A DNA stretch of 64,000 nucleotides from Escherichia phage FP43. The notes under the pieces are model-generated. The model was not told where the DNA came from. It saw only the letters and a program-made list of their open reading frames with translations, and searched no databases. This document shows, in pieces, positions 12,895-31,858 of the stretch (the first letter of the stretch is position 1; the number at the start of each line of letters is the position of its first letter). The DNA is taken from the sequence record MN648445; one strand, 5' to 3'. Made by a program: the position numbers and the translations under genes.

Positions 12895-12933
12895 GTTTAC
12901 ATGCTGATAGGACTATGTTATAGTAGTCCTATC
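12895..12933 (+). promoter_or_regulatory. Early promoter cassette with perfect 10-bp inverted repeat around -10
   Basis: GTTTAC 12895..12900; TATAGT 12919..12924; arms GATAGGACTA (12906..12915) and TAGTCCTATC (12924..12933). Confidence 0.65.
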
Positions 12934-12959
12934 AGATCAACAACCAAACGGAAAAACAA

Positions 12960-13223
12960 ATGAAAACCTATAAAGAATTTATCGCTGAATCTCAATCTTC
13001 TACTCTGTCAGAGAACTACGAATCATTCTCTTACAACAACGACCATGCAATGTTCTACGACCGAAACATCGGTACTTACGTCCATGTATGGGGTGTTAAA
13101 GATGGTAATGTAGTTGTTAAGAAAAACTCTAAAGAAGGCAACGGACGAGGCCAGGTAAAAATTACCAGCAAGAAAGCTATCCAAGCTTACGTCGATTATG
13201 TTAAACGCGAAGCTGGTATTTAA
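12960..13223 (+). CDS. Internal-protein-like capsid-targeted protein (second copy)
   Basis: N-terminus MKTYKEFIAE; tandem with 12604..12891. Confidence 0.6.
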   Translation: MKTYKEFIAESQSSTLSENYESFSYNNDHAMFYDRNIGTYVHVWGVKDGNVVVKKNSKEGNGRGQVKITSKKAIQAYVDYVKREAGI

Positions 13224-13225
13224 TA

Positions 13226-13264
13226 GTTTACATGCCGATAGGACTATGTTATAGTAGTCCTATC
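13226..13264 (+). promoter_or_regulatory. Early promoter cassette, same family as 12895
   Basis: GTTTAC 13226..13231, TATAGT 13250..13255, GATAGGACTA/TAGTCCTATC arms. Confidence 0.65.
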
Positions 13265-13293
13265 AAAACAAAATGATTAAATGGAGAAATAAA

Positions 13294-13479
13294 ATGAAAC
13301 GCGCTGAACTGATTCGTAATGTTGCTGTAGTAATTGCTTCAATGGCTTTTAGTTTTTCGATGTTTGTAGGATTCATTTGTGGACTACTGACAACAACTGA
13401 AAATTCTATCTCATTGGTAGTAGCATTTCTAATCGGTTTAATCGCTATTGTTATGGATAAAATTGCAAAAGGTGAGTAA
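13294..13479 (+). CDS. Small hydrophobic (membrane) protein
   Basis: 61-aa ORF with two hydrophobic stretches; RBS GGAG upstream. Confidence 0.4.
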   Translation: MKRAELIRNVAVVIASMAFSFSMFVGFICGLLTTTENSISLVVAFLIGLIAIVMDKIAKGE

Positions 13480-13480
13480 A

Positions 13481-13843
13481 ATGAAATATCACGTATATGC
13501 GGATTTTGAAGCAAATCCTTCTAAAGACCCGGATTGTCGTTTATTCCGTAATCCGTTTGATTCAGCAGCTCAAGCATGGGCCTGGATTAAAACTTGTACT
13601 CCTTCTTACACTTTCTTTGAAGTGGTAGATGATAACGGTGTTTTGCATCCAGAACCTACAGAAACTATTAATTTCCTTCTGTTTGCTGGTTACGACTGTT
13701 ATCCTCTTGGCGGTATTGATGATCTTGTTGCTACAGGAAAAACTGTTGAAGCTCTTCGCGAAATTTATAAAAACGCGGAAGAAAATTTTGACTGGTATCA
13801 TATTGTTGATGCTCATACCTTTGAAGTGGTGGAACATTCATGA
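13481..13843 (+). CDS. Hypothetical protein
   Basis: 120-aa ORF from ATG 13481 with RBS; no recognised motif. Confidence 0.45.
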   Translation: MKYHVYADFEANPSKDPDCRLFRNPFDSAAQAWAWIKTCTPSYTFFEVVDDNGVLHPEPTETINFLLFAGYDCYPLGGIDDLVATGKTVEALREIYKNAEENFDWYHIVDAHTFEVVEHS

Positions 13844-14130
13844 TTCTTTATGCTAAGGTAAAATCCGTTGAGAATGGATATGAAAGCGATCAACGTGCAG
13901 CTAAAGCACTAGTTGATGACTACGGTATTCTGACCCACTTTGAAGTTGAAAAGGTTTATATTGACCGTTCATCTTCACAGGTTAAATTACTCTGGGAAGA
14001 CCGTAAATTTAATAGCGTGAACTTTGATTTCTTTATTGAAACAGAAAAAGGCCCTCTTGAATATGATATTTTCAAGAATCCTTTGAAATTACGTTGCATT
14101 GAATATAATTACATTAATATGGTACGGTGA
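13840..14130 (+). CDS. Hypothetical protein
   Basis: 96-aa ORF with start overlapping upstream stop. Confidence 0.4.
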   Translation: MILYAKVKSVENGYESDQRAAKALVDDYGILTHFEVEKVYIDRSSSQVKLLWEDRKFNSVNFDFFIETEKGPLEYDIFKNPLKLRCIEYNYINMVR

Positions 14131-14134
14131 GTAA

Positions 14135-14650
14135 ATGAATATTTGTTTAGGCAGTACAATTCCTAAGGGTTACGTAATTGATGTCACTACTTGGGAAAAT
14201 GACGGCGACAACTATAAAACCAAAACATTATTTGGTGTGGAAGAGCATGAGCTCCAACAGTTTAAATATCTCTTGAAGAAATTTAAGAGTCGTCATTCCA
14301 GCACTAAAGCCGAACGTTACTGCGGTAATACGCCATTCGGTCGTTGCTCGCTTTTAATCTATGAATACTTGGTTGAAGGACTGTTCTCAGACCAACTCCA
14401 ACCGGAATTTATTAAAAAGGTCTTTGGCATCGAAGTAGACCTTGGTGATAAATCTGAAGAAGACGAAGCCCGCGTATTCGACCTGTTCTTTGTGAAAGGC
14501 GATGAGATATCTCAAGGACTTATTGATATTCTTGGCTATGCTTCTGAATACTATGATTACGATTTCTTGCGTGTAGTTGAACGTGTCGAATTTGCTTATA
14601 TTGAAGAAGAAATTGTTTTGCCAACTGTTAAAATGATTGATTTGCTTTAA
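14135..14650 (+). CDS. Hypothetical protein
   Basis: 171-aa ORF in same orientation as flanking genes. Confidence 0.45.
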   Translation: MNICLGSTIPKGYVIDVTTWENDGDNYKTKTLFGVEEHELQQFKYLLKKFKSRHSSTKAERYCGNTPFGRCSLLIYEYLVEGLFSDQLQPEFIKKVFGIEVDLGDKSEEDEARVFDLFFVKGDEISQGLIDILGYASEYYDYDFLRVVERVEFAYIEEEIVLPTVKMIDLL

Positions 14651-14729
14651 GAATTATGTGTTATTATTAATTCATACCCTCTATTACCAAAGGTGCTCTA
14701 AAGTGCCTTTCATAATAGAAAGTTATTAA

Positions 14730-14804
14730 GGCCCTGTAGCTCAATGGGAGAGCTGTCAGCTCATAACTGATAGGTAGCTGGATCGAAACCAGCCAGGGTC
14801 ACCA
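14730..14804 (+). tRNA. tRNA with CAU anticodon (elongator Met, or Ile2 if C34 is modified)
   Basis: Hand-folded cloverleaf: acceptor GGCCCTG/CAGGGTC, D-arm GCTC/GAGC, anticodon stem GTCAG/CTGAT with loop CTCATAA, T-arm GCTGG/CCAGC, encoded CCA. Confidence 0.7.
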
Positions 14805-14807
14805 ATT

Positions 14808-14884
<77 letters not shown>

Positions 14885-14902
14885 ACTTCAAGTGAGGAAA
14901 AT

Positions 14903-15247
14903 ATGAAAGGCAATGTTTATCTGGTAGTTCATGATTTAACGTTTTATTTTAACGAACGTGAAACAGTTATTTCCGATAGGTTAATTAATTCGCTGTATCA
15001 GCATGCTGATTATGTTTATTTTCAAAATGAATTCGGACATTGGAAGTTTCTTAAAAACCGTTCTGGGTTAACTAGTTTTGAATACTTTGACCGTAAAGAC
15101 CTTTTAAACGAAATTCCATTACAACATCGGTTCCAGAAACGCGAATCATTATATTATTGCCGTCATATACCAAACGCAGAATGTGCCTATGAAGCGATTA
15201 ATCTATGGCGTCGGCGTCGAGAGCAAATTGATGATATGCCAAAATAA
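14903..15247 (+). CDS. Hypothetical protein
   Basis: 114-aa ORF from ATG 14903 with GAGGAAAA RBS directly after tRNA-Arg. Confidence 0.45.
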   Translation: MKGNVYLVVHDLTFYFNERETVISDRLINSLYQHADYVYFQNEFGHWKFLKNRSGLTSFEYFDRKDLLNEIPLQHRFQKRESLYYCRHIPNAECAYEAINLWRRRREQIDDMPK

Positions 15248-15249
15248 GA

Positions 15250-15549
15250 AGCCGGGTCGCTACCGGCAAGTCGTCGGACTGATGTTCCCTGAGTAGGGAC
15301 TGGTCTTAATAAATCTTTATGATTCGTTAATATCCCCTTACATCACAGCAGAAACGGCGCACAGAATTATCGATTCGAGGAAATATCTTTGCCGTAAGCC
15401 GAGTAGCGTTTTTGACGGGACGTTCGGATATGGTAGAGATATGGCCTTTTAAAAATATTGAGTAGCGTCAACTGCTTAATAACCGGGTTCGAATCCCGGC
15501 GTTTCGTACAAACACTTACCTAGTAGGTGGAAACCCCGACAAGGTATAT
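15250..15549 (+). ncRNA. Candidate small stable RNA(s) downstream of the tRNAs
   Basis: About 300 nt without a convincing ORF; several hairpins and a T-arm-like GGGTTCGAATCCCGG; ends at a strong terminator; T4 has small RNAs C and D in its tRNA region. Confidence 0.3.
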
Positions 15550-15579
15550 AGCCCCTTCCGAAAGGTTGGGGCTTTTTTT
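15550..15579 (+). terminator. Rho-independent terminator
   Basis: AGCCCC-loop-GGGGCT stem followed by T7. Confidence 0.75.
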
Positions 15580-15580
15580 G

Positions 15581-15588
15581 TATAAATA
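15581..15588 (+). promoter_or_regulatory. Late promoter (TATAAATA)
   Basis: Exact octamer about 35 nt upstream of the 15624 ORF. Confidence 0.6.
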
Positions 15589-15623
15589 TAGTAAACAATA
15601 AACCTACTTTCTAAGGACCATCA

Positions 15624-16250
15624 ATGTATACTTTTAATGAATTTTTAGCCGAAACGGAAGTAATCACCGAAGCCGGTGTACGTATGACAAAAGAGAAATG
15701 GCAAGCTGCTTACGATGCTATTTCTGGTACAAAAACTAGTACAGAGTTTTTCAAAAACGTTCAAGCCATGTACGGTATCGACACTTCCAGCCAAAAAGAA
15801 TATTACAGAGCTTCTAAAGCATTCAAAGATATTGTTAGTGGTGGTGTTTCTGCTAAATCTGGTTCGCCTAAAGTAAAACCTGCTCCTACCACTCCTAAAC
15901 CTGCGACCCCTAAAGCAGTAGCAAAACCTGAGCCTAAGCCGGAAGTAAAAGCAACTCCTAAAGCTCCTGCTCTTAAGTTTGATACTTCTAGCCTGGAAAA
16001 AAAATATAAACAACTATCTTCGCTTGTTCGTGATATTGAATCTGATACATCTTCACTCGTTCGTGAATTCAATAGTCTTCGTAATGGCCAACATATCAAC
16101 AACCTTGATACCCCAGACCTTTATCGTCTTTATTTGACTATCGAAGGTTTGAAGTATACTCAACCACTTCATGATGAGATTAAAGAAAAACTTCGACAAG
16201 CAGGTCGTTTGGCTGCTGACGCTGCTCAGTATGCAAAAACTCGTAAGTAA
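15624..16250 (+). CDS. Internal-protein-like protein with Pro/Lys-rich linker
   Basis: N-terminus MYTFNEFLAE resembles the capsid-targeting leader; low-complexity PKVKPAPTTPKPATPKAVAKPEPKPEVKATPKAP; late promoter upstream. Confidence 0.55.
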   Translation: MYTFNEFLAETEVITEAGVRMTKEKWQAAYDAISGTKTSTEFFKNVQAMYGIDTSSQKEYYRASKAFKDIVSGGVSAKSGSPKVKPAPTTPKPATPKAVAKPEPKPEVKATPKAPALKFDTSSLEKKYKQLSSLVRDIESDTSSLVREFNSLRNGQHINNLDTPDLYRLYLTIEGLKYTQPLHDEIKEKLRQAGRLAADAAQYAKTRK

Positions 16251-16253
16251 AGA

Positions 16254-16273
16254 ATGGGGACTTCGGTCCCCAT
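16254..16273 (+). terminator. UUCG-tetraloop hairpin at gene end (terminator or stability element; no U-tract)
   Basis: ATGGGGAC-TTCG-GTCCCCAT perfect 8-bp stem. Confidence 0.4.
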
Positions 16274-16302
16274 TAGGGGGTCTATAACTTACTGAAAAAG
16301 TT

Positions 16303-16340
16303 GTTTACTTCTTCCCTAGATGTGTTACTATAGAACCTAT
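16303..16340 (+). promoter_or_regulatory. Early-type promoter
   Basis: GTTTAC 16303..16308, spacer, TACTAT. Confidence 0.5.
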
Positions 16341-16361
16341 CAACAACATGAGGAAAATGTT

Positions 16362-16865
16362 ATGAGTCTTTACACTGAACTGAATAAAAAATCTGAAGAA
16401 TCTGCTGAAACTATTTTTAAAAACGTGCAAAAGCGTATTTTAGAAAAGATGTATAACGCTGCATCTAAAGGTGAAAAATCTTGCCAGTTTCCGATGAGGT
16501 GTTCTTCTGATTTATGCGCAAATACTATTGAATGGTTGGAAAGTGAAGGTCTTACAGTAGAGAAAAACCCGGCGACTTCTATTGACAGTGAATCATATAT
16601 TAGTATTTCTTGGGATAAATCAAGGGTAGAAGAGAAAGATGGTGATTGGGTTGTAGATGTTAAAACTTCTGATGGTGGACGTTCTGTTGAAGTTTCAGCT
16701 GTAGTTAAAGGTACCCACGAACAAAGGACTTGGGGTTGGGGTGGTGAAGAAAAAGAAATTGTTCTTAGTGTGATTGCCAGGTCAACTAGTAATAAAATTG
16801 CACAAAGCATCATTGACGCTGCAATTGCTGAAGCAGAAAAAATTTGCAAAATTAAAAATAAATGA
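16362..16865 (+). CDS. Hypothetical protein
   Basis: 167-aa ORF from ATG 16362 with GAGGAAAA RBS. Confidence 0.45.
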   Translation: MSLYTELNKKSEESAETIFKNVQKRILEKMYNAASKGEKSCQFPMRCSSDLCANTIEWLESEGLTVEKNPATSIDSESYISISWDKSRVEEKDGDWVVDVKTSDGGRSVEVSAVVKGTHEQRTWGWGGEEKEIVLSVIARSTSNKIAQSIIDAAIAEAEKICKIKNK

Positions 16866-16924
16866 TGTACAAACACCAAGGACGGTGTTACTATAGACTT
16901 ATCAACTACAGAGGAGTAAACAAA

Positions 16925-17089
16925 ATGACTACTTTAATTATTTGGTTCGATGAAAATGAAGAAACATACTGTGTGAATATTGGTGAAAGTCCAATGCCTG
17001 AATTTGAATCCTCGGATAAAAACTCTGTTGTATCTTGGGCTGAAGGTTATAAAGCAGCTAAAGGTGACGTTGAAATAATTTACATCTAA
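16925..17089 (+). CDS. Small hypothetical protein
   Basis: 54-aa ORF with GAGGAG RBS. Confidence 0.35.
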   Translation: MTTLIIWFDENEETYCVNIGESPMPEFESSDKNSVVSWAEGYKAAKGDVEIIYI

Positions 17090-17135
17090 GTAAGTTTATG
17101 TTATAGTAATCACATCAAATAAAGAGGAAAACAAA

Positions 17136-17363
17136 ATGGCTAAAGTTAGTATTGATGTAGTTGATTATGAATACACCGAAGAAGTTATTCGCAACCGACA
17201 CCCTGAAGTTCGTATCGATTCAGTCCAAGATTCCAAGTTCTGGACAACTGAGCTTAATCTGAGTGGTCCTTATGAAGCTGTTAAGAAGTTCATGGTTGAA
17301 GAATACTGTGAAGGCATGCACCCCGAAGACGCAAAGTTTTATGTCAATTTGATTAAAAAATAA
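17136..17363 (+). CDS. Hypothetical protein
   Basis: 75-aa ORF with GAGGAAAA RBS. Confidence 0.4.
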   Translation: MAKVSIDVVDYEYTEEVIRNRHPEVRIDSVQDSKFWTTELNLSGPYEAVKKFMVEEYCEGMHPEDAKFYVNLIKK

Positions 17364-17399
17364 TTTACAAACTCTTGAGAGCAGAGTATAATGCTCTCG
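17363..17399 (+). promoter_or_regulatory. Early promoter cassette (TATAAT flanked by GAGAGCA/TGCTCTC); near-identical copy at 47266
   Basis: ATTTAC -35, TATAAT 17387..17392; the 45-bp cassette recurs at 47266..47312. Confidence 0.6.
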
Positions 17400-17433
17400 T
17401 TGGATAATAAACCACCAATTGAAAGGTAATAAT

Positions 17434-18027
17434 ATGAACACATTGAAGAAACTTGTTGAATTCATCCGCACTAAACTGGGTACTGCTATGGCTAAAAATC
17501 TGACTGTAGAAGAACAGTATAACGCAGCTGCAGATAAGTTGATTACCCAAATCAAAGAACTAAAAACGGCTTCTGTTAAATCTATTAACGAAGAAAAACG
17601 TATTCGCGAACTTGTTAATGAAAAGAACAAGCAAGCCGCTTCTAAGGAACGTGAAATTCGTAAGCTCCTGGCTGAAGGACAAGATGTTACCATGCATGCT
17701 AAGCTTGGACTTCTGTATCGTCGAACTGCCGAACAACTTAATACAAAAGCTGACGGGTATGCCGCTATGCGAATTGAAATTGCTCGTAAGGTGGTTGAAC
17801 TTGACGATGCTCGTCAGAACCTGGCAATCAAACTCGAATACATTCGTGAAACTCGAGCAGCCAATGCCCTTGGTATCTCTACCGCTGACGATGTAATTGA
17901 AATCGCTGCACTGACTAAGGTTGATATCGAAGACACTCTGACTCGTGTTGAAACGTTCAATGGCACTCCAGCTGGTGTCGAAACCACTTCTGCTGATGTA
18001 CAAGAATATATTAACTCTTTGAAATAA
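17434..18027 (+). CDS. Coiled-coil protein, function unknown
   Basis: 197-aa ORF, Ala/Glu/Lys-rich heptad-like sequence. Confidence 0.45.
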
Positions 18028-18036
18028 AATAATACG

Positions 18037-18059
18037 GAGGACTCCGGTCCTCCTTTTGG
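18037..18059 (+). terminator. Rho-independent terminator
   Basis: GGAGGAC-TCCG-GTCCTCC stem followed by TTTTGG. Confidence 0.7.
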
Positions 18060-18076
18060 ATAATAAAGGAGTTAAC

Positions 18077-19043: not shown

Positions 19044-19381
19044 CCGTATGGCCTTCTCTTGGTGAGAACATTCTAATTTTTATTATGAGTATTGGCATGG
19101 GATTTGCCTTTGGATTAGTTGGATTTCTTATTGACGGCGTTGTGTTAGGATTTATAGGGAACACTGGTGGATTCACAGACCAATGGCAGGACTTACGGTA
19201 TACCCAAGCCTTTGCATCCATCGCATCATTTTGTACTGTAGTCTATTTTTACTACGATTTTATAAACCACAACAAGAAAAATAAAAAGGTTTACGCTTCT
19301 CAAATGATTAGTTATAATGAACTCCTAGCTAGACGTGAAAATGAAACAATCGAAAACTTTATTAAGGAATGTAGAAAATGA
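19022..19381 (+). CDS. Membrane protein, C-terminal NFIKECR motif
   Basis: 119 aa, hydrophobic N-terminal half, C-terminus ...NETIENFIKECRK. Confidence 0.45.
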   Translation: MQKPQLLTVWPSLGENILIFIMSIGMGFAFGLVGFLIDGVVLGFIGNTGGFTDQWQDLRYTQAFASIASFCTVVYFYYDFINHNKKNKKVYASQMISYNELLARRENETIENFIKECRK

Positions 19382-20176: not shown

Positions 20177-20214
20177 GTTTACAACAAGATAGGGCTATGT
20201 TATAGTAGTCCTAT
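20177..20214 (+). promoter_or_regulatory. Early promoter cassette (GATAGG.CTA / TAGTCCTATC family)
   Basis: GTTTAC 20177..20182, TATAGT 20201..20206. Confidence 0.6.
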
Positions 20215-20234
20215 CAAAACAAATGGAGTCCACA

Positions 20235-21471: not shown

Positions 21472-21510
21472 GTTTACAAGGTCTGTAGTTGTTGATACTA
21501 TAGACCTATC
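21472..21510 (+). promoter_or_regulatory. Early-type promoter cassette
   Basis: GTTTAC 21472..21477, TACTATAGACCTATC downstream. Confidence 0.5.
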
Positions 21511-21539: not shown

Positions 21540-21740
21540 ATGACTACTTTGAATAAACGTTTCGGTAAAGCTAAACCTGGTTGTGCAGCAGAACGTCGTT
21601 ATGTTTTCGCTCAGTTAGAAGATGTAGAGTATCAGATTAATCAAGTTCACATTACTGGTATCGAGCCTATGTGTGGCCTTGAAGCTCTTCGTGAAGTTCG
21701 TGATGGGTATCGTCGTGACATCGAAGAAATGTCAAAATAA
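21540..21740 (+). CDS. Small hypothetical protein
   Basis: 66-aa ORF. Confidence 0.35.
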   Translation: MTTLNKRFGKAKPGCAAERRYVFAQLEDVEYQINQVHITGIEPMCGLEALREVRDGYRRDIEEMSK

Positions 21741-21741
21741 G

Positions 21742-21779
21742 TGTACAAACTGATAGGACTATGTTATAGTAGTCCTATT
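21742..21779 (+). promoter_or_regulatory. Early promoter cassette (TGTACA -35 variant, GATAGGACTA/TAGTCCTAT arms)
   Basis: TGTACA 21742..21747, TATAGT 21765..21770. Confidence 0.55.
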
Positions 21780-21798
21780 AAAACATGAGGAGAATATT

Positions 21799-22792: not shown

Positions 22793-23283
22793 TGATTAAC
22801 AAAACATATTGGTCTAATATAGACGATGGCAACGAAGGTATTTCGTACTATTCAGTGGATTGGACAGGATGTCCATCCTACTTAGTGAAACGTATTTGCC
22901 AAGAATTTAAAATCGACCAGCCAGCAGGTATTATCGTGAACAGATACATTAATGGATATCAACCTATCGATGAAGTAATACGAACAACTCAAGCTGAGCT
23001 TGAAAAGTTTTTCAATAAGTGCCAATGGATAACAGGATGGATTATATTTGTACCGTCGGTATGGTTTTTCAGTACTAAGGTGAGTTCTTTCGGTTTTGTT
23101 GATATTATTGCTATCTTATTAGCATCTAGTATCGTAAGTGTTGTTGGTGGCATCATTGGCGGCGGTACCGCCGCCATCATTATTAATCTTATTAAAAGTA
23201 GTTTACAAGAACATAAAGACAAGATAAAAGCCAAGAATAATGAAGTTGAACGTTTTATTACCGAATGCAGGAATTTGAGATGA
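22792..23283 (+). CDS. Membrane protein, C-terminal RFITECR motif
   Basis: 163 aa, Gly-rich hydrophobic segment, ends ...NNEVERFITECRNLR. Confidence 0.5.
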   Translation: MINKTYWSNIDDGNEGISYYSVDWTGCPSYLVKRICQEFKIDQPAGIIVNRYINGYQPIDEVIRTTQAELEKFFNKCQWITGWIIFVPSVWFFSTKVSSFGFVDIIAILLASSIVSVVGGIIGGGTAAIIINLIKSSLQEHKDKIKAKNNEVERFITECRNLR

Positions 23284-23516
23284 GTATAGCAATTTACATT
23301 AAATCAGAATCATGTGATAGTTATCTGTACACATATGATAAAGATGTGTCAGAAGAAAAAATCAAAGACGACCTTAATACGGACCTTGATATGTTCTGTC
23401 CTATTGCAGATTACAAACTTGCGGTCTCTAATAGTGAAAGTCCATCTAAAGAAACGCGCATTGAAGAATTTATGTCTGAATTAATGGCCAAATCATGGGA
23501 CCGAGATGATGAGTAA
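23280..23516 (+). CDS. Small acidic hypothetical protein
   Basis: 78-aa ORF with ATGA overlap to upstream stop. Confidence 0.4.
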   Translation: MSIAIYIKSESCDSYLYTYDKDVSEEKIKDDLNTDLDMFCPIADYKLAVSNSESPSKETRIEEFMSELMAKSWDRDDE

Positions 23517-23964: not shown

Positions 23965-23970
23965 GTAATA

Positions 23971-23998
23971 AATACCTCCTATAAACGTGGGAGGTATT
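23971..23998 (+). promoter_or_regulatory. Stem-loop sequestering the Shine-Dalgarno of gene e
   Basis: 9-bp stem AATACCTCC / GGAGGTATT with 10-nt loop TATAAACGTG; ATG at 23999 follows immediately. Confidence 0.65.
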
Positions 23999-24766: not shown

Positions 24767-24818
24767 GTTTACTTCCTCCAAGGGTTTTGATACTATACAT
24801 TCATCAACTACTTGGAGG
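24767..24818 (+). promoter_or_regulatory. Early promoter cassette whose 3' arm contains the denV Shine-Dalgarno
   Basis: GTTTAC 24767..24772, TACTAT 24791..24796; perfect 8-bp arms CCTCCAAG (24775..24782) and CTTGGAGG (24811..24818). Confidence 0.6.
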
Positions 24819-24823
24819 AAATT

Positions 24824-25237
24824 ATGACTCGTATCAATTTAACACTTGTTTCTGAACTGTCCGACCAACATCTTATGGCTGAGTATCGTGAATTACCACG
24901 CGTATTTGGTGCAGTCCGTAAACATGTTCAAAACGGTAAACGTGTAAAGGATTTTAAAATCTCTCCAACATTTATCTTAGGCACAGGTCACGTAACATTC
25001 TTTTACGACAAACTCGAATTTTTACGTTTACGTCAAATCGAGCTAATCGTTGAATGTTTGAAACGTGGTTTCAAAATCAAGGACACGACAGTCCAGGATA
25101 TTTCCGACATCCCTGCCGAATTTCGTAATAATTATGTCCCGTCCGAAGCGTCCATTGCGATAAGTCAAGCACGCTTAGATGAAAAAATTGCTCAACGTCC
25201 GACTTGGTACAAATACTATGGTAAATCAATTTACTAA
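24824..25237 (+). CDS. denV: Endonuclease V (pyrimidine-dimer DNA glycosylase)
   Basis: [35 protein letters not shown]...; 137 aa; recognised T4 denV pattern. Confidence 0.9.
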
Positions 25238-25244
25238 GGAAAAA

Positions 25245-25574
25245 ATGAAAACATATCAAGAGTTTATCACTGAAGTTACATTATCTGCGGAACAGAAAGC
25301 TGCTATCGAAGAAAGTAAAAATCCCAAAGTAACATATAAAGTAAATAGTAAAGGCGTTTTTGATGGCTTGGTTCAAGACCCTGAATTGAAAAAAGCTCTT
25401 TCTAAAACTAATGCGTACTTTGCTCCTAAATTTAACACAGCAGGTGTACTTATTGGATTGGATGTATTCAACTCTAAAGGTGTTCTATCTAATGCCTTTG
25501 GCTATGCCGCTAACAAAATTACCAAAGCCGCATGGGAATCCAATACCAAACAAGCTCAAAAGCCTAGAGTATAA
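25245..25574 (+). CDS. Internal-protein-like capsid-targeted protein
   Basis: N-terminus MKTYQEFITE, exact match to the recalled T4 leader MKTYQEFIAE with one substitution. Confidence 0.65.
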   Translation: MKTYQEFITEVTLSAEQKAAIEESKNPKVTYKVNSKGVFDGLVQDPELKKALSKTNAYFAPKFNTAGVLIGLDVFNSKGVLSNAFGYAANKITKAAWESNTKQAQKPRV

Positions 25575-25746
25575 TTCTTGTCTAATAAAGGGAAACGCAA
25601 CCTCTCCTTATGAACGTCGAGTCCTCTGAGTGATGTACCTTTTCCAACCTGTAATAAGGTCGAGCGCAATGCGGTAATGGGTTTACATAGCGAGTCGAAG
25701 GACCTAACATGTGCCACGGAATGGCCCAAACCTTAAGAGAAATAAT

Positions 25747-26286: not shown

Positions 26287-26591
26287 TGACCACTATTGAA
26301 GTTTTTGAATATTGTTATAACAGCCCAGTATGCAATAAAAGGGCTCTTGTAGAAAATTACGAGATTTACCATTTTAAACCTAAACGATACCGTTTGACTA
26401 AAGGTCCGTTCGCAGGGCAGCAGGTTCTTTGTACTGCTCCTAATGCACGGTTGATGACTAGTATTCCGCATTTCAAAATGGAATTTATTGATGGGCCATT
26501 TAAGGGATTAATCACTCAAAGTTTAATGGCGTTTAATTCTGACCCATTTTTGATTAAAGAAAAAACTTGGATAAATTTATTTTCTAATTGA
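26283..26591 (+). CDS. Hypothetical protein
   Basis: 102-aa ORF with ATGA overlap. Confidence 0.4.
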   Translation: MMTTIEVFEYCYNSPVCNKRALVENYEIYHFKPKRYRLTKGPFAGQQVLCTAPNARLMTSIPHFKMEFIDGPFKGLITQSLMAFNSDPFLIKEKTWINLFSN

Positions 26592-26597
26592 GGTTAT

Positions 26598-26960
26598 ATG
26601 AAAGCATATCAAATTCTTGAAGGTGCACATAAAGGCACTATTTATTTTGAAGACGGTACTCAAGCCCGGATTATCGTCTCTAAGACTTTTAAAGAAGACG
26701 CTATTGTAGACCCGGAAATTTTCTACGGTTTGAATGCCCGTGAAATTGAAATTGAACATCAACCTAAAGTTAAAATTGAAGGTGGTCAACACCTGAACGT
26801 TAATGTTCTGCGTCGTGAAACTCTGGAAGATGCAGTTAAGCATCCAGAAAAATATCCGCAGTTGACCATTCGTGTATCCGGTTATGCAGTTCGCTTTAAC
26901 TCTCTGACTCCAGAACAGCAGCGCGACGTTATCGCTCGTACCTTTACTGAGAGTCTATAA
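26598..26960 (+). CDS. Autonomous glycyl-radical cofactor (GrcA/YfiD-like; T4 Y06I-like)
   Basis: 120 aa; C-terminus [28 protein letters not shown] carries the RVSGY glycyl-radical motif. Confidence 0.75.
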
Positions 26961-27184
26961 TGGCTAAATTGATTATAGAAGGGTCTAAAGATGTGCTAAA
27001 TGCTTTCGCAGAATGGTTTAGTAATTCAGGCGAGCAATCATTCACTGAAGCATTTAGAATGGGTGATATTACTGGAAAATATCCGACAACCGATATCACT
27101 GTACGTGGATATGGTATTAATGAGCCTATCCAATTGGTCGAATATGACCTTGCCACCGATGAGGAAATTCCTTATGTCGATTGA
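26960..27184 (+). CDS. Small hypothetical protein
   Basis: 74-aa ORF with ATGA overlap. Confidence 0.4.
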   Translation: MAKLIIEGSKDVLNAFAEWFSNSGEQSFTEAFRMGDITGKYPTTDITVRGYGINEPIQLVEYDLATDEEIPYVD

Positions 27185-27419
27185 AGACATCAAAGGCTAC
27201 AAGCCGCATACCGATGATAAAATCGGTAAAGTGAACGCTATTAAAGATGCAGAAGTTCGATTAGGGCTTATTTTCGATGCCTTGGCGGAAGAAGCGTTGT
27301 CTGCGAATACTCCTGAAGCTTTGACAGCTTTGTCCCAATTGAACTGTGCTAAAGAACGCCTAAAGGAAGCTAGTATGTGGGCTTGTCGTGCGGTATTTCA
27401 ACCAGAGGAAAAATACTAA
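27174..27419 (+). CDS. Small hypothetical protein
   Basis: 81-aa ORF from internal ATG 27174. Confidence 0.4.
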
Positions 27420-27718
27420 TGGCTCAAATCCTATCAGGCTTTGGAACTCATTATGAAGCATCTCGACGCATAACTGAAAACAATCCTTTTGGCCTTGTTC
27501 CGAAGCACAAGAAAATTCAAAGCCTTGATGACTTTGAGAACCGCCTATGGGCCCTCTTTAATGAGTACAAGGCATATCTGAAAGAAGACGCTGACGATTG
27601 TCTTGAAGAAGATGAGATTGCGTATTACGAACAACGCCTTGAACAGCTCAAGAACTTCCACCAGGTTCGTGACGAAGTATCTAAAGCAGTTAAAAAGTTA
27701 ATTCCTTTCAAAGAGTAG
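27419..27718 (+). CDS. Hypothetical protein
   Basis: 99-aa ORF; denV-regB interval where T4 carries the vs.x genes. Confidence 0.45.
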
Positions 27719-27766
27719 TTTACTTCTCCTCTAGTTGTGTTACTATAGACCTGTCAACTAGAGGAG
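27718..27766 (+). promoter_or_regulatory. Early promoter cassette with perfect 12-bp inverted repeat; 3' arm contains the regB Shine-Dalgarno
   Basis: GTTTAC 27718..27723, TACTAT 27741..27746, arms CTCCTCTAGTTG (27726..27737) and CAACTAGAGGAG (27755..27766). Confidence 0.65.
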
Positions 27767-27774
27767 AAATCAAA

Positions 27775-28233
27775 ATGACTATCAATTCGGAAGTTTTTAT
27801 CCGCCGTAATAAACTCCGTCGAATCTTTGAAACGGAGTTCCGCAAAATAAATGCCGGTATAAAAGATGCTGCAAAGTCTCTTGGACTACCAGGCTTTCAT
27901 ATCAAGTATTCTCAACATCTCTTAGATCGTGCCATCCAGAGAGAAATAGATGAGAATTACGTTTTTGAATTATTTCATAAAGTAAAAAATCATGTTAAAG
28001 AAGTTGCAGAATTTTTATCAATGCCGGCACGTCCAGATGTTGATGAAGATTTTGTCGAAGGTGTCGAATATCGCCCAGGCCGTTTAGAAATAACTGACGG
28101 AAATCTTTGGTTAGGACTTACAGTCTGTCGCGAAAATCCAGCATTCAAAATGAAGACTCTTCAATGCAGAATGGCTATTATTAACAGTAAACGACTACCA
28201 GGAAAAGCTTCTAAAGCAGTGATTAAAATCTAG
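27775..28233 (+). CDS. regB: Endoribonuclease RegB
   Basis: 152 aa, MTINSEVFIRRNKLRR...; recognised T4 RegB pattern. Confidence 0.85.
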   Translation: MTINSEVFIRRNKLRRIFETEFRKINAGIKDAAKSLGLPGFHIKYSQHLLDRAIQREIDENYVFELFHKVKNHVKEVAEFLSMPARPDVDEDFVEGVEYRPGRLEITDGNLWLGLTVCRENPAFKMKTLQCRMAIINSKRLPGKASKAVIKI

Positions 28234-28241
28234 AGGTAAAC

Positions 28242-28784
28242 ATGAGAAAAGCACTACTCGCTGGTCTATTTGCTCTTTCGTTATCAGCACATAGCTCCGA
28301 GCATACTTTTAGTAATGTCCAACTCGATAACTTGAATTATGCTTATCAGTTTGGGGAACAGTTTTCTAAGGACGGAAAATTTAAAACGCATGAAAATATG
28401 CATAAGAAAGGACTTGGATACATAATGGCCGCAATACTATGGCAAGAATCTTCCGCCGGTATTAATCTTAAAGATAAGAAAGGTCACCATGCGTATGGAA
28501 TGTTCCAAAACTATCTACCAACAATGAGGGCAAGAATTAACCAGCTTGGTTATAATATGACTGATGCCCAAATTAAGAAAATGCTATCTAAGCGGTCTAA
28601 TTCAGCAAGATGGGCTTATATCGAATTTTCTTATTGGTTAAATATACATAACGGGGATATAAGAAAAGCTATATCCTCATATAATGCGGGATGGAAGACA
28701 AGTGCTGGAAGTAAATATGCTTCTGAAGTCCTAGAAAAGGCTAATTACCTTAAATCAAATAAACTACTGGAAATAAAAGAATGA
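28242..28784 (+). CDS. Secreted protein (vs.1 position), possible transglycosylase-like
   Basis: 180 aa with signal peptide MRKALLAGLFALSLSAHS; weak E-S motif LWQESSAG. Confidence 0.45.
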   Translation: MRKALLAGLFALSLSAHSSEHTFSNVQLDNLNYAYQFGEQFSKDGKFKTHENMHKKGLGYIMAAILWQESSAGINLKDKKGHHAYGMFQNYLPTMRARINQLGYNMTDAQIKKMLSKRSNSARWAYIEFSYWLNIHNGDIRKAISSYNAGWKTSAGSKYASEVLEKANYLKSNKLLEIKE

Positions 28785-29128
28785 CCAAAATGTTAGCTTT
28801 AATAGTTGGCTTGGTTTCATTTAACGCTCTTGCTAATACTACATATACTGATGTAACGGAGTATACAAACAGAACGGCGTCTGATTATTGTGGTAAAAGT
28901 CAAGAGTGTAAAGTAGATTTTTCACAAAAATTGTTATATGCGTATAAAGACGGAGAAAAAGATGGGGCGTCTAGTAGGTTCAAGGCGTCTACCTTAATTA
29001 AAAGATACTATAAAAAATGGCAAATATTAGAATGCTCGGTGGCGGAACCTAAAGATAAGGCAGCATGCAATTCTATGGTGGACCGTCTAGTTGACTCTTA
29101 TACTAGAGGACTTGTAGCAAGTGATTAA
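28781..29128 (+). CDS. vs: Vs-like secreted protein
   Basis: 115 aa with signal peptide MTKMLALIVGLVSFNALA; size and position as T4 vs. Confidence 0.5.
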   Translation: MTKMLALIVGLVSFNALANTTYTDVTEYTNRTASDYCGKSQECKVDFSQKLLYAYKDGEKDGASSRFKASTLIKRYYKKWQILECSVAEPKDKAACNSMVDRLVDSYTRGLVASD

Positions 29129-29588
29129 AAACTATATCAAGGGCGATATTGTCGCCCTGTTTTCTAAAGGTAATAATATTGCTCATGGGTGCAATTGTTT
29201 TCATACAATGGGTGCCGGTGTAGCAGGTCAATTGGCAAAGGCTTATCCAAAAATTTTAGAAGCCGATAAACTTCAAACCGAATTCGGAGACGAGTCTAAA
29301 CTCGGGACTTATTCGGTTTATGAAAAATATTTTAAGACCCATAAAGCTTATTGCTTTAATCTTTATACACAGTTTGAGCCGGGACCTAATTTTGAGTACT
29401 CTGCTTTAATGAATTGTATAATAGAATTAAATGAATTCGGAAAAAATAAGATAACAAAGCCTGTAATTTATATGCCAAGAATTGGTGCAGGTATTGGTGG
29501 TGGAAACTGGGATGTCATCGAAGAGATTTTAGATACGTATTCCACTAAACTAGAAATTGTGATTGTTGATTGGGAACCATTGTTATGA
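29121..29588 (+). CDS. Hypothetical protein (weak macro-domain-like Gly motif)
   Basis: 155 aa; GCNCFHTMGAGVAGQLA and later GAGIGGGNW. Confidence 0.35.
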   Translation: MIKNYIKGDIVALFSKGNNIAHGCNCFHTMGAGVAGQLAKAYPKILEADKLQTEFGDESKLGTYSVYEKYFKTHKAYCFNLYTQFEPGPNFEYSALMNCIIELNEFGKNKITKPVIYMPRIGAGIGGGNWDVIEEILDTYSTKLEIVIVDWEPLL

Positions 29589-29797
29589 ATGTGCATTATC
29601 CTCACCCGTATGACCCAAAGAATAAAGCAGTTATTATTCGTGAATGGGAAGAAATTCGTCAGACTAAGTGTCCTATTAACACCCCTCACGATGTTGAACG
29701 TCGTTATCATGGACGCTTTATGGAATATACCTTTATTGATAAGAAAGGTCGTAAAAAGCATGTCGAAGAATATTGCATGCAGGTCAAATGGTTATGA
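29585..29797 (+). CDS. Small hypothetical protein
   Basis: 70-aa ORF from ATG 29585. Confidence 0.35.
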   Translation: MNVHYPHPYDPKNKAVIIREWEEIRQTKCPINTPHDVERRYHGRFMEYTFIDKKGRKKHVEEYCMQVKWL

Positions 29798-30000
29798 GTC
29801 AAACAAAAATTATTAAAGGCGCTAAATGCGAAAAGTGTGAATGGCCTGTAGTATTTGCTCTATGCAATGACGAAATGGCCTGTGATTTTGATTATTGGTG
29901 TTACTGTTCAAACAAAGGTTGTAGCAATCATAAAGGTGAAGGGTTTTACTCAGGATTTTACCCTTACCCAGATTTCGTTAAAGAAGGTGAACCTAAATGA
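29794..30000 (+). CDS. Small Cys-rich hypothetical protein
   Basis: 68 aa with CEKCEW...CDFDYWCYCSNKGC. Confidence 0.4.
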   Translation: MSQTKIIKGAKCEKCEWPVVFALCNDEMACDFDYWCYCSNKGCSNHKGEGFYSGFYPYPDFVKEGEPK

Positions 30001-30179
30001 AATTGACTAAAGAAGAGAAAACTAAACTGTTCGAACTTATCCATGACCTATTGGATGAGCAAGCAGCCACCAATGCGTACGATGAATATGCTCCTTTAAC
30101 AGATGAAGAATATCAAGCATTGTTGGAATCATTTGACAGGAAAGAACAAGAACTCATTGACTACGTGAATTCACTATAA
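29997..30179 (+). CDS. Small acidic hypothetical protein
   Basis: 60-aa ORF with ATGA overlap. Confidence 0.35.
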   Translation: MKLTKEEKTKLFELIHDLLDEQAATNAYDEYAPLTDEEYQALLESFDRKEQELIDYVNSL

Positions 30180-30188
30180 GGGACTCTT

Positions 30189-30770
30189 ATGGCTAGTTTA
30201 ATTTTTACCTATGCCGCTATGAACGCTGGTAAGTCTGCTTCATTACTTACTGCCGCACATAACTATAAAGAACGTGGCATGGGTGTATTAGTTCTTAAAC
30301 CGGCTATTGATACTCGTGATTCAAAAGGTGAAATAGTCTCTCGTATTGGTATTCGTCAGGATGCCAATATAATTACAAAAGACATGGATATCTTTGAATT
30401 CTATAAATGGGCTGCAGCACAAAAGGATATTCACTGCGTATTTGTTGACGAAGCTCAGTTCTTAACTACTGAAAAGGTGTATCAACTTAGTCGTATTGTT
30501 GACGTATACAATGTGCCGGTAATGGCATATGGACTACGAACAGATTTTAAAGGTAATCTATTTGAAGGTTCTCAAGCATTAATGGCTATTGCCGATAAGC
30601 TTGTTGAACTTAAAGGTGTCTGTCATTGTGGTAAAAAAGCCACGATGGTAGCTAGAGTCACGGAAGATGGACTTCCAATTACAGATGGCAGTCAAATTGA
30701 AATTGGTGATACCGATAGATATGTGTCATTATGCCGGAAGCATTGGAATGATTTGACAGGGTTGTTATAA
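30189..30770 (+). CDS. tk: Thymidine kinase
   Basis: 193 aa; P-loop AAMNAGKSASLL; C-terminal Cys cluster; T4 Tk size. Confidence 0.88.
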   Translation: MASLIFTYAAMNAGKSASLLTAAHNYKERGMGVLVLKPAIDTRDSKGEIVSRIGIRQDANIITKDMDIFEFYKWAAAQKDIHCVFVDEAQFLTTEKVYQLSRIVDVYNVPVMAYGLRTDFKGNLFEGSQALMAIADKLVELKGVCHCGKKATMVARVTEDGLPITDGSQIEIGDTDRYVSLCRKHWNDLTGLL

Positions 30771-30797
30771 ATACTAATATCTAACCAAGAGGTATAT

Positions 30798-31010
30798 ATG
30801 CAGCAATTAAACGAAAGACAACTTCGTAATCTTACTGTAACCCAATTGGATGAAATCCGAAGAGAATTAGGACATTCTATTTCTCATTTAAACGAGGATA
30901 TCCGTCAAACTGGTTCTAAAGCTGATTATACACGCAAGCGCAAGCTGGAAAAATACCTCACAGATGTTAAGGCCGTCCAAAGGCGAAAAATAAATACTGG
31001 CCAAAATTAA
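30798..31010 (+). CDS. Hypothetical protein (tk-rI interval)
   Basis: 70-aa basic ORF. Confidence 0.45.
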
Positions 31011-31022
31011 CAGGAGGCCTAT

Positions 31023-31325
31023 ATGGCCTTAAGAGCGATAGCTGTCATAGCGATGCTGGGGTTTTTTGCAGCAACAACTCCTATCGTTGGTACTGCACAT
31101 ATTGACCCATATTTTGATAACTTTATGGAATCAGGGATTAAAAACGTATATACTTTGTTTGAAATTCAAAATGTCGAGAATTCTGAAAAATTCTATAAGT
31201 ATATGGCAAAGCATTACAAAAATAGCCCCTGTGATGATGCATTTGAATGTCATGAACAAGGCATAAAAACTGCCAGACAATTTGCTGAGTTCATGAAAAT
31301 AAAATTAGAGCCTACATCTATCTAA
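31023..31325 (+). CDS. rI: Lysis-inhibition regulator RI
   Basis: 100 aa with signal-anchor MALRAIAVIAMLGFFA; pattern matches recalled T4 RI. Confidence 0.8.
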   Translation: MALRAIAVIAMLGFFAATTPIVGTAHIDPYFDNFMESGIKNVYTLFEIQNVENSEKFYKYMAKHYKNSPCDDAFECHEQGIKTARQFAEFMKIKLEPTSI

Positions 31326-31331
31326 TTTACT

Positions 31332-31360
31332 AGCCCCTTCCTTATGGTTGGGGCTTTTTG
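31332..31360 (+). terminator. Rho-independent terminator
   Basis: AGCCCC-loop-GGGGCT followed by TTTTT. Confidence 0.75.
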
Positions 31361-31370
31361 GCGTCTATCA

Positions 31371-31420
31371 GTTTACTTCTCCTCAGGTTGTGTTATAGTA
31401 GTCCTTACTTACTAGAGGAG
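31371..31420 (+). promoter_or_regulatory. Early promoter cassette; CTCCTC near -35 pairs with GAGGAG RBS downstream
   Basis: GTTTAC 31371..31376, TATAGT 31394..31399. Confidence 0.55.
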
Positions 31421-31426
31421 AACGTT

Positions 31427-31606
31427 ATGACACGTAAAGAAAAGATTTCTAAGTTGATGTTTTTGATTGAAGAGTACGCTAATGCGGTATCTGATTGGGA
31501 AAATGCTCATGGTTGCGAAGATGGAGACATCGACATTAACAGAGCTATGAAAAAGATGGCCGACGCCCACACTGAATTGCAAATGTATGTTAACGAGATT
31601 ATGTGA
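31427..31606 (+). CDS. Small hypothetical protein
   Basis: 59-aa ORF from ATG 31427. Confidence 0.4.
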   Translation: MTRKEKISKLMFLIEEYANAVSDWENAHGCEDGDIDINRAMKKMADAHTELQMYVNEIM

Positions 31607-31613
31607 GGATATT

Positions 31614-31820
31614 ATGCTTTACGATTATACTGGAAAATCTGAAGACGGTGTGCTTGAACTTTTACCTGAAAGCGCTGAAGATGATGATATGGTGGCAATG
31701 TTTTGTAAAAATGGTCCTGGGGATAAGGGATGGATTTATCTTCGCCAAGAAAATGACCTAATTGTTTTAGACCCAAAACAAGTTGAAGAACTTTATCAAC
31801 ATTTAAAACACAATCGGTAG
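31614..31820 (+). CDS. Small acidic hypothetical protein
   Basis: 68-aa ORF. Confidence 0.4.
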   Translation: MLYDYTGKSEDGVLELLPESAEDDDMVAMFCKNGPGDKGWIYLRQENDLIVLDPKQVEELYQHLKHNR

Positions 31821-31858
31821 TTTACATCTCGGTAGGATTATGTTATAGTAGTCCTACC
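31820..31858 (+). promoter_or_regulatory. Early promoter cassette (GGTAGGATTA / TAGTCCTACC arms)
   Basis: GTTTAC 31820..31825, TATAGT 31844..31849. Confidence 0.6.

Follow-up and report, generated by a model that had tools for sequence, protein, structure and literature searches.

What is the function of the composite elements, part early promoter and part inverted repeat, that recur upstream of small genes in a 64,000-nucleotide stretch of DNA from Escherichia phage FP43 (sequence record MN648445; the whole of this stretch is referred to below as the window)? A preliminary description of positions 12895–31858 likened them to the promoter-early stem-loops (PeSLs) of T4-type phages. The comparison holds: the elements have a T4-type consensus, lie on one strand and carry a selected stem-loop overlapping the -10 element, and their orthologues in phage RB69 are predicted early promoters. 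The reading preferred here, to which a probability of about three in four is given, is that they are PeSL-type composite cassettes of Mosigvirus, each combining an early promoter, a hairpin that forms in read-through RNA and a patch of homology for recombination.

All the sequence-level defining features of PeSLs are found in the window cassettes, which are thus a Mosigvirus example of a class already described; the finding is genuine, and most of it has been explained before. It does not overturn current understanding, as PeSLs have been described since 2010 and PeSL-like elements at internal-protein (IP) loci, as related in Arbiol 2010, since 1994. What is added is a catalogue of coordinates, statistics for selection of the stem as sense RNA, a division into hairpins that flank the -10 element and hairpins that mask the Shine-Dalgarno (SD) sequence, and a base-level account of the junctions. 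The incremental point is that the stem appears to be selected as a sense-strand RNA structure which only read-through transcripts could form, and which would mask the ribosome site in denV and regB.

A predicted early promoter family on one strand

A 33-nucleotide core occurs five times on the + strand, at 12906–12938 (two mismatches), 13237–13269 (none), 20188–20220 (one), 21752–21784 (one) and 31831–31863 (three), compared with 0.00 matches expected by chance in 100 shuffles. These are the five near-identical cores of the preliminary description, all recovered within 2 nucleotides of the positions given there. Likeness among the copies is limited to about 50 nucleotides, from the -35 element to about +8, and their flanks are unrelated.

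The search for such promoters used a two-block weight matrix built from the obvious sites. It gave 24 predicted early promoters in the interval 12540–46965. Every one is on the + strand; the - strand gave 0 and shuffles 0–2. The output ran to 25 rows, in which 17363 and 17364 are one promoter, and site 37622 was added from the pattern list. The sites are of the T4 early type, each with an SD sequence and an ATG 25–60 nucleotides downstream. That description had counted about 20 sites within 12895–31858; promoters are indeed present there, but they number 14, together with a weak promoter-like site at 23292, and about 10 have a hairpin. The count was thus roughly twice too high, while the promoter family itself is borne out.

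The consensus consists of an A-rich block, a GTTTAC(A) -35 element, a 17-nucleotide spacer counted from TTTACA, an extended -10 element TGnTAtAgT and then a conserved discriminator/start block, (A/G)nnCCTATCAA; the matrix consensus from the upstream block to the -10 element reads t.a.aAAa.aGTTTACA ... TGTTAtaaT. A generic sigma-70 scan showed no overall enrichment (73 sites versus 64.5±8 in shuffles), but such a scan is uninformative here because AT-rich DNA yields many chance matches, and the family-specific matrix alone is informative. The strongest generic matches with a TG are the cassette promoters. The orthologous sites of RB69 were predicted as early promoters by Nolan 2006, with which 21 of 22 equivalent sites coincide, and a scan of T4 found the same architecture at ipI, trna.4, ipII, ipIII, denV, regB and nrdC.8. 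Host sigma-70 RNA polymerase would be expected to read such a promoter, starting at an A or G about 7 nucleotides after the -10 element and driving the small open reading frame (ORF) just downstream.

A hairpin that begins in the promoter spacer

RNA folding places a hairpin across the -10 element of many of these promoters. At 11 sites its z score lies between -2.7 and -5.8, with 0–1 of 200 shuffles as good; at four it is marginal and at five there is none. Within 12895–31858 the hairpins at 12895, 13226, 17363, 20177, 21472, 21741, 24767, 27718 and 31820 have z scores of -3.6 to -5.8, with 0 of 200 shuffles as good, and at sites 16303, 17078 and 19289 the same folding gave no -10-spanning hairpin above shuffles. 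In about 14 of the 24 promoters (about 60%) the 5' arm of a hairpin falls within the promoter spacer. The preliminary description had set the -10 element between the two arms, which is roughly right: in the five-copy family TATA is in the loop, but GT falls within the 3' arm.

The hairpins can be divided into two classes. In class A (sites 12540, 12895, 13226, 17363, 20177, 21472, 21741, 31820, 35981 and 46965) a stem of 7–14 bp has its 5' arm in the promoter spacer, and its 3' arm begins in or right after the -10 element and covers the discriminator/+1 block. In class B (24767, denV; 27718, regB; more weakly 31371 and 45838) the first 8–14 nucleotides of the spacer (TTCTCCTC...) constitute an anti-SD, which pairs with the SD of the downstream gene across a loop of 17–30 nucleotides holding the -10 element and the start site. 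The class B 3' arms (24811–24820, 27755–27768, 31415–31422 and 45878–45887) contain GGAGG, GAGGAG or GAGGA, whereas those of class A do not.

The two arms of a site are matched to one another. When each spacer was paired with its own or with another site's downstream sequence, after near-identical copies had been collapsed, own pairs had a mean of -10.3 kcal/mol and permuted pairs -6.5±0.7, with 0 of 2000 permutations as low (p<1/2000). The arm sequences themselves are unrelated between sites (GAGAGCA, AGGTCTAT, AGGATGAT, GATAGGAAGA).

For the five-copy family, 38 unique sequences were assembled. They come from the window itself and five sister genomes, from IMG/VR contigs and from two further phages, an Acinetobacter T4-like phage and a member of the Vequintavirinae; the -10 element and the 3'-arm motif GTCCTA were the sole criteria of choice, and the 5' arm played no part in it. 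Only 14 stretches came from an exact-pattern scan of IMG/VR; they added diversity but are too few for a phylogeny-aware test of G·U against A·C. In the set of 38, 94.5% of cells in the helix are paired, compared with 28–64% in slid controls, and the pair 13/38 is AU in 20, GC in 10 and GU in 5 sequences. Interior mismatches are G·U in 26 cases and A·C in 2. Since a single transition in a Watson-Crick pair is as likely a priori to produce the one as the other, the bias indicates reading of the structure on the + strand, as sense RNA. Taken with the pairing, this points to a hairpin under selection as a sense-strand RNA structure. One of the rare A·C mismatches occurs in RB69, in the copy upstream of trna.4 (record coordinate 76445), where GATAAG stands for GATAGG and the hairpin falls from -16.6 to -11.1 kcal/mol.

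The 5' arm lies 10–30 nucleotides upstream of the +1 position predicted from promoter geometry. Because it is upstream of that start site, the hairpin should be possible only in read-through RNA coming from an upstream promoter. On this view the spacer, which is otherwise free, has in about 60% of the cassettes evolved complementarity to the sequence downstream of the -10 element. A class A hairpin would then sit between two cistrons of the read-through RNA, where it would most likely serve as an attenuator or pause site or as a 3'-end stabiliser of the upstream cistron.

Probable masking of the ribosome site at denV and regB

The two strong class B elements lie on the + strand. At denV (ATG 24824) the element spans 24767–24820, and the spacer arm TTCCTCCAAG (24773–24782) pairs with CTTGGAGGAA (24811–24820), which includes the SD (folding free energy, dG, -18.9; z -5.65). 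At regB (ATG 27775) it spans 27718–27768, and the spacer arm TTCTCCTCTAGTTG (27724–27737) pairs with CAACTAGAGGAGAA (27755–27768), which includes the SD GGAG (dG -21.4; z -5.53). Two + strand sites are marginal: 31371–31422 (ATG 31427), with TTCTCCTC at 31377–31384 opposite GAGGAGAA at 31415–31422 (z -1.54), and 45838–45887 (ATG 45895), with TCCTCGATAG at 45845–45854 opposite CTATAGAGGA at 45878–45887 (z -2.01). The promoters of class B are of the early type (GTTTAC N17-18 TAnnnT) and not of the late gp55 type TATAAATA, motifs of which occur elsewhere in the window. In read-through mRNA the ribosome site of denV, regB and the others would be masked, leaving the message untranslated and its GGAG shielded from RegB, whilst the promoter-proximal mRNA would remain open.

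The spacer-to-SD helix of regB is kept in phages whose RegB is 56–98% identical to that of the window. Its gene-specific extensions exist in at least four versions (TAGTTG/CAACTA, TTGACT/AGTTAA, TTTATG/CATAAA and TGTAAG/CTTACA). Aligning the arms on hand-set anchors showed both partners altered in 6 of 14 pairs and gave a covariation score of 0.332 versus 0.130 in shuffles, with 0 of 500 as high; the alignment leans towards structure. At denV, T4 has the analogous pairing CTCCTGTAG/CTACAGGAG where the window has that given above. At nrdC.8 the promoter hairpin belongs to class B in T4 but to class A in the window, so what is conserved is a hairpin that starts in the spacer, and not its target. 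Upstream of regB in two T4-like IMG/VR contigs (L035 and L036), a class A hairpin (GGGCCAT/ATGGCCC round the -10 element) is nested in a class B outer stem (TTTCCTT/AAGGAGA).

In T4 a comparable logic is known from e, soc, 49 and I-TevI, genes controlled by SD-masking helices in which the 5' strand is encoded upstream of an internal late promoter (PMC3014915). As is proposed for class B, the long transcript is masked and the short one is translated. The internal promoter of those genes is late, however, and the switch separates early from late expression, whereas class B relies on the early promoter of the gene itself, whose spacer supplies the 5' strand. The same source reports that GGAG can be shielded from RegB by RNA structure, and that most middle RNAs are resistant (PMC3014915). 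The known SD-sequestering hairpin of gene e (lysozyme, ATG 23999) is present in the window at 23970–23998 as AATACCTCC...GGGAGGTATT, with a late-promoter-like TATAAA in its loop; it is the established analogue of class B. No description of an SD-masking arrangement at early promoters was found in the literature examined, and one may exist.

Cassettes as sites of gene gain and loss

The annotated relatives used for comparison were the Mosigvirus phages G53, APCEc01, Shf125875, SF, AV114 and RB69. Alignment of the window with five Mosigvirus genomes over 12.0–48.9 kb gave 51 distinct synteny breakpoints. Cassette intervals make up 5.9% of the sequence and contain 15 of these (p=1.6e-7). When gene starts served as control, a breakpoint was found at 14 of 20 starts that have a cassette versus 13 of 46 that do not (Fisher p=0.0019).

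Four junctions were examined base by base. The IP-like ORF 12960–13223, between cassettes 12895 and 13226, is missing in APCEc01; ORF 16925–17089, between 16865 and 17078, is missing in G53; ORF 21540–21740, between 21472 and 21741, is missing in three sister genomes (L003, L004 and L005); and about 1 kb between 37622 and 38642 is missing in AV114, with the crossover in a shared 26-nucleotide block. In each case two cassettes of the window correspond to one chimeric cassette elsewhere, which joins the first cassette's left flank to the second's right flank, and the crossover falls within the shared promoter sequence. Three of the four segments replaced are single ORFs. The view of these elements as mobile cassettes, put forward in the preliminary description, is thus supported by their position at insertion and deletion junctions of sister genomes. 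Because cassettes of 40–70 bp recur in one orientation between small genes, single-gene cassettes can be deleted, inserted and swapped by homologous recombination.

The internal-protein locus provides an example. Two tandem IP-like genes (12604–12891 and 12960–13223) both start with MKTYKEFI, a leader conserved in the T4 internal head proteins. As the second is bounded by cassettes and missing in APCEc01, IP content varies by cassette gain and loss. Some internal-protein genes are known to counter host defences. Elements made of a promoter and an inverted repeat were reportedly proposed by Repoila and colleagues in 1994 to mediate the shuffling of IP genes. In the summary given by Arbiol 2010 (PMC2839356), Repoila et al. 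1994 saw PeSL-like elements, composed of T4 early promoters and weaker, AT-rich stems, flanking the IP genes of T-even phages. Window sites 12540, 12895 and 13226 likewise flank two IP-like genes, one of them a presence/absence cassette, but the window element also occurs far outside the IP locus, at 20177, 21741 and 31820.

The segment at 25237–25708, just after denV, is also variable: sister genomes have different extra ORFs there (ipII-like and others), and G53 annotates an over-long 'denV' of 226 amino acids. No recognisable early-promoter cassette lies at this breakpoint, so not all shuffling proceeds via cassettes.

Relation to described PeSLs and alternative explanations

PeSLs were named for RB49 and phi1, as composite promoter/stem-loop cassettes that mediate modular shuffling; the stem-loop is most commonly found between the -35 and -10 elements or overlapping the latter, and G-T pairs were noted (Arbiol 2010; PMC2839356). 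The window cassettes have the same succession of AT-rich block, early promoter, stem-loop and SD/ATG of a small ORF, in one orientation and in hyperplastic regions. They also share the G-T pairs in the stems and the single-ORF insertions and deletions between sister phages, with the crossover inside the element. They differ in their promoter, which is near-perfect TTGACA/TATAAT in RB49 and phi1 and has the T4 consensus GTTTAC ... TAtAgT in the window, and in their stems, which are polyG/polyC there and here AT-rich and built on the discriminator block CCTATC; the window cassettes are known from sequence. Functionally, PeSLs are further characterised by promoter activity in vivo, termination or attenuation of upstream transcription and encapsidated mini-circles produced when neighbouring elements recombine. 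PeSLs were later extended to T4/PST and KVP40/nt-1 (Comeau 2014; PMC4122927). The T4/PST elements share the consensus TTTACW N17 TAYWAT and the tie to insertions and deletions in hyperplastic regions. According to a figure legend in that paper the stem-loops of PST lie just upstream of the promoter, whereas in the window, and in our own scan of T4, most overlap the -10 element or run from spacer to SD; the upstream arrangement is found in the window only at 16303, 34515 and 31371.

How the hairpin acts is less easily settled. On the original reading of PeSLs the promoter is joined to a genuine transcription terminator, so that the stem-loop stops or strongly attenuates upstream polymerase and each gene is transcribed only from its own promoter. 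The published evidence for this comes from a single RB49 element: the polyG/polyC stem of PeSL211/210, placed between a promoter and lacZ, cut expression about as much as rrnB T1 (Arbiol 2010; PMC2839356), although the lacZ result cannot separate termination from translational or stability effects, and the stems of the window are AT-rich. The window hairpins are intergenic, stable, with a dG of -14 to -21 kcal/mol, and under sense-strand selection. Furthermore, at promoters 16303, 34515 and 31371, which have no strong internal hairpin, a separate hairpin, rich in GC, closely precedes the -35 element, which suggests that the two are interchangeable; at 31371 it is terminator-like, is followed by a T-run and lies immediately upstream, at 31332–31355. 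Intrinsic terminators are GC-rich, short-looped stems with a run of U directly behind them, and other intercistronic hairpins, such as repetitive extragenic palindromic (REP) sequences and that of malE-malF, act as stabilisers. Both types are, like the window hairpins, stable intergenic sense-strand structures downstream of a stop codon. The window hairpins lack a U-tract and have AT-rich stems, and are therefore not canonical terminators; sites of canonical appearance, GC-rich with a short loop and a T-tail, occur elsewhere in the region (for example at 18036–18053). The loops of class B, at 17–30 nucleotides, and the SD within the stem fit translational control better. Genuine termination is accordingly an unlikely account of the window cassettes, and by analogy with the stabilisers it is possible that the class A hairpin protects a 3' end.

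Two further explanations can be set aside with greater assurance. The repeat might be a DNA-level element, either an operator for a dimeric phage or host protein, such as a factor that shuts off early promoters, or a cruciform that controls the promoter or attracts endonuclease VII. The -10 element is enclosed by the repeat, the arms GATAGGAC...GTCCTATC are conserved as far as an Acinetobacter T4-like phage and a Vequintavirinae phage, and the mechanism of early-promoter shut-off is not understood (PMC2988021, PMC3014915). A single sequence-specific protein could not, however, read the unrelated arms listed above within one genome, and a cruciform or palindromic operator would penalise G·U and A·C equally. 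Nor do class B arms, 17–30 nucleotides apart and ending in an SD, suit such an element, and conservation of the 3' arm is explained by the discriminator/+1 consensus CCTATCAA, which hairpin-less promoters have too. This makes a DNA-level role very improbable. Least probable of all is that the cassettes have no separate function, being duplicated strong promoters with incidental palindromes, or that they are autonomous mobile elements of the miniature inverted-repeat transposable element (MITE) kind. They are certainly multi-copy, with 5–9 per Mosigvirus genome, and an unrelated phage subfamily has the cassette alone in common with them. Against incidental palindromes stand the permutation test, with near-identical copies collapsed, and compensatory changes within and between families. 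Against a MITE, the copies end at promoter elements (-35 and +8) and not at terminal repeats or target-site duplications; homologous crossovers within shared sequence, and not insertions, account for the junctions; and all copies have a single orientation just upstream of an SD and ATG.

Several points weigh against the preferred reading of the elements as promoter, read-through hairpin and recombination patch. About one-third of the promoters (about 8 of 24) lack a promoter-overlapping hairpin or have a weak one at most, so the hairpin is optional. The G·U and A·C counts come from related sequences and do not represent 26 independent events, and gene conversion that homogenises copies may inflate the apparent conservation of pairing in the five-copy family. 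At regB the arms were registered by hand on CTCC/GGAG anchors; unguided MAFFT/RNAalifold on the regB leaders found no consensus structure, because arms of differing length were mis-registered. No U-tract or T-run follows any cassette hairpin, the sequence there being CAAAAC, and none was flagged by a terminator scan, so that one cannot deduce the published 'terminator' role from sequence. No usable map of T4 or RB69 transcript ends showing 3' ends at such hairpins was found in the literature. The motif family, its strand bias, the selection for pairing, the sense-strand bias of the mismatches and the junctions are shown by the sequences themselves; the start sites, the read-through, folding in vivo and what the class A hairpin does are inferred from them.

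Implications for early gene expression

A bolder proposal, offered tentatively and thought more likely wrong than right, is that the spacer-embedded 5' arm is a general isoform switch of T4-type early genes, giving two mRNA forms for each cassette gene. The short form, from the gene's own promoter, would have an open leader, be translated and later be cut by RegB at GGAG. The read-through form would have a closed leader and be translationally silent, RegB-resistant and perhaps more stable. If true, this would help to explain both the RegB resistance of 'middle' read-through RNAs and the confinement of regB and denV expression to the first minutes of infection. Under such a switch the unit of 50–70 bp would stay portable because the discriminator/+1 consensus of the promoter itself fixes its 3' arm, and by spread or convergence it would have reached Acinetobacter T4-like phages and Vequintavirinae.

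On the preferred, composite-cassette reading, the elements show how the accessory early genes of T4-type phages are wired and rewired. Each small gene would have its own strong promoter, and the same unit of 40–70 bp would be the homology patch by which single genes, including IP genes, are lost, gained or swapped between relatives. It offers a concrete, testable model of how early genes may be insulated from upstream transcription. In the annotation of Mosigvirus genomes, the cassettes point to true gene starts and to the likely limits of cassettes.

Distribution in other phages

The specific cassette is found in 270 phage records, with nine copies in RB69 among the Mosigvirus genomes and single copies in many Tequatrovirus genomes. 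T4 has class A hairpins at ipI, trna.4, ipII, ipIII and others. Acinetobacter phage Acj61 (Twarogvirinae) has five copies, GATAGGAC...GGTCCTATC, at 4330, 20003, 22627, 32375 and 34018, in which the -10 element is TATAAT and pairing of the inner stem is kept through U·G. The stem is conserved over such a range because its 3' arm is the promoter's own discriminator/+1 consensus, present also in hairpin-less promoters, and the 5' arm follows it.

In Escherichia phage UPEC06 (Vequintavirinae) a cassette identical at 45 of 49 nucleotides, with the stem intact, lies at 2501–2549, between small ORFs of this rV5-like phage. Similarity in UPEC06 and A73 is limited to the cassette of about 70 bp; the flanking ORFs are unrelated and have no match in the compared loci. 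The Vequintavirinae cassette could be a horizontal transfer of the bare cassette or a case of convergence. The rV5 paper does not mention the cassette.

Individual sites and their surroundings

All the sites described here are on the + strand. Upstream of ipI (ATG 12604), the class A site 12540–12575 has its -35 GTTTAC at 12540–12545, its -10 TACTAT at 12564–12569 and arms at 12549–12560 and 12564–12575 (dG -15.4, z -2.74), and its RB69 orthologue is Pe:77187. The five-copy family begins at 12895–12935, upstream of the IP-like ORF with ATG 12960, where the -10 TATAGT is at 12919–12924 and the arms are at 12904–12916 and 12923–12935 (dG -20.9, z -5.42); this is the left boundary of the ORF absent from APCEc01. 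The member with the exact core, 13226–13264, precedes a trna.4-like ORF (ATG 13294) and has its -10 at 13250–13255, arms at 13237–13247 and 13254–13264 (dG -16.6, z -5.81) and a predicted start near A13262; a synteny breakpoint falls exactly here in sister genomes L002, L004 and L005. At 20177–20215, upstream of an ORF135c-like gene (ATG 20235), the arms (20188–20198 and 20205–20215) include one G·U (GGGCT/AGTCC; z -4.01). The copy at 21741–21780, upstream of an ORF133c-like gene (ATG 21799), has the -35 variant GTGTAC/TGTACA and arms at 21751–21762 and 21769–21780 (z -4.49). At 31820–31858, upstream of an ORF107c-like gene (ATG 31878), the arms (31831–31841 and 31848–31858; z -4.80) show a compensatory change from A-U to G-C plus one U·G.

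The remaining class A sites have stems of their own. At 17363–17398, upstream of e.6 (ATG 17434), an unrelated stem GAGAGCA/TGCTCTC accompanies a -10 TATAAT at 17387–17392 (z -3.91). The stem at 21472–21507, upstream of ORF 21540–21740, is AGGTCTGTAGT/ACTATAGACCT (z -3.57), and the site is the left boundary of that single-ORF cassette. Site 35981–36015, upstream of nrdC.8 (ATG 36037), has AGGTCTATGGT/ATTATAGACCT (z -2.06), and 46965–47005 (ATG 47026) has ACGATAGGAAGACA/TATCTTCCTATCGT (z -4.25), with a synteny breakpoint at 46972.

Promoters 16303 (-10 at 16326–16331, z -0.61) and 34515 (-10 at 34538–34543, z -0.19) have no internal hairpin, and the upstream hairpin in each, at 16253–16274 and 34468–34485 within the elements 16253–16338 and 34468–34550, has a UUCG tetraloop. 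Both belong to a second repeated intergenic element, 16253–16282 and 34468–34495, that reads GGGGAC(C)TTCGG(G)TCCC and then TTAGGGGGTC, found in two copies versus 0 expected and situated 20–30 nucleotides upstream of the -35 of these promoters. Its trailing GGGGGTC could rival the 5' arm for pairing with the 3' arm.

Other sites have a weak hairpin or none. The early promoter at 16865–16901 (ATG 16925), with no significant -10-spanning hairpin, is the left boundary of the ORF cassette absent from G53, and that of frd.3 (17078–17114, ATG 17136) has no hairpin (z +1.27). A weaker early-promoter-like site within a coding region, 19289–19325, likewise has none (z +0.19); its RB69 orthologue is Pe:70143. 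The early promoter at 37622–37658 (ATG 37678) shares the 26-nucleotide spacer/-10 block ACAACCAAGGATGGTTGGAGTATAAT with that of nrdC.3 (38642–38678, ATG 38700), where a small hairpin is confined to the spacer (z -0.11). No significant hairpin is present at the early-promoter-like sites 39619–39655 and 41339–41375, the latter orthologous to RB69 Pe:48639, and the early promoter at 46540–46581 has a marginal hairpin around its -10 element (z -1.58).

The 10-kb and 25-kb stretches around the cassettes are 95–97% identical to Mosigvirus (RB69-like T4-type) coliphages over 90–99% of their length, and JS98 matches just 7% of the stretch. For the window the identity to Mosigvirus genomes is put at 96–97%. 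Between 11 and 48 kb the gene order of the window runs from 1/57A/57B through the IP and tRNA loci to e, denV, regB, tk and nrdC.x and then to gene 55, with all genes on the + strand, the early-gene direction. The region from 57B to gene 55 is rich in small hypothetical ORFs. In T4 the corresponding segment is the classic block of early, non-essential genes, the 'hyperplastic region'. A perfect GC-rich palindrome, TGGCGGCGGTACCGCCGCCA, lies at 23157–23176 within an e.2-like ORF, in a region otherwise of 37% GC, and has no T-run after it. When Rfam covariance models were run over 11000–49000, only two tRNAs reached the gathering score, and there was no cassette match. The two tRNA genes occupy 14730–14881, between the IP/trna.x genes and the next ORFs; sister annotations give them as tRNA-Met and tRNA-Arg, and in AV114 a tRNA-Asn substitutes for tRNA-Arg at this locus.

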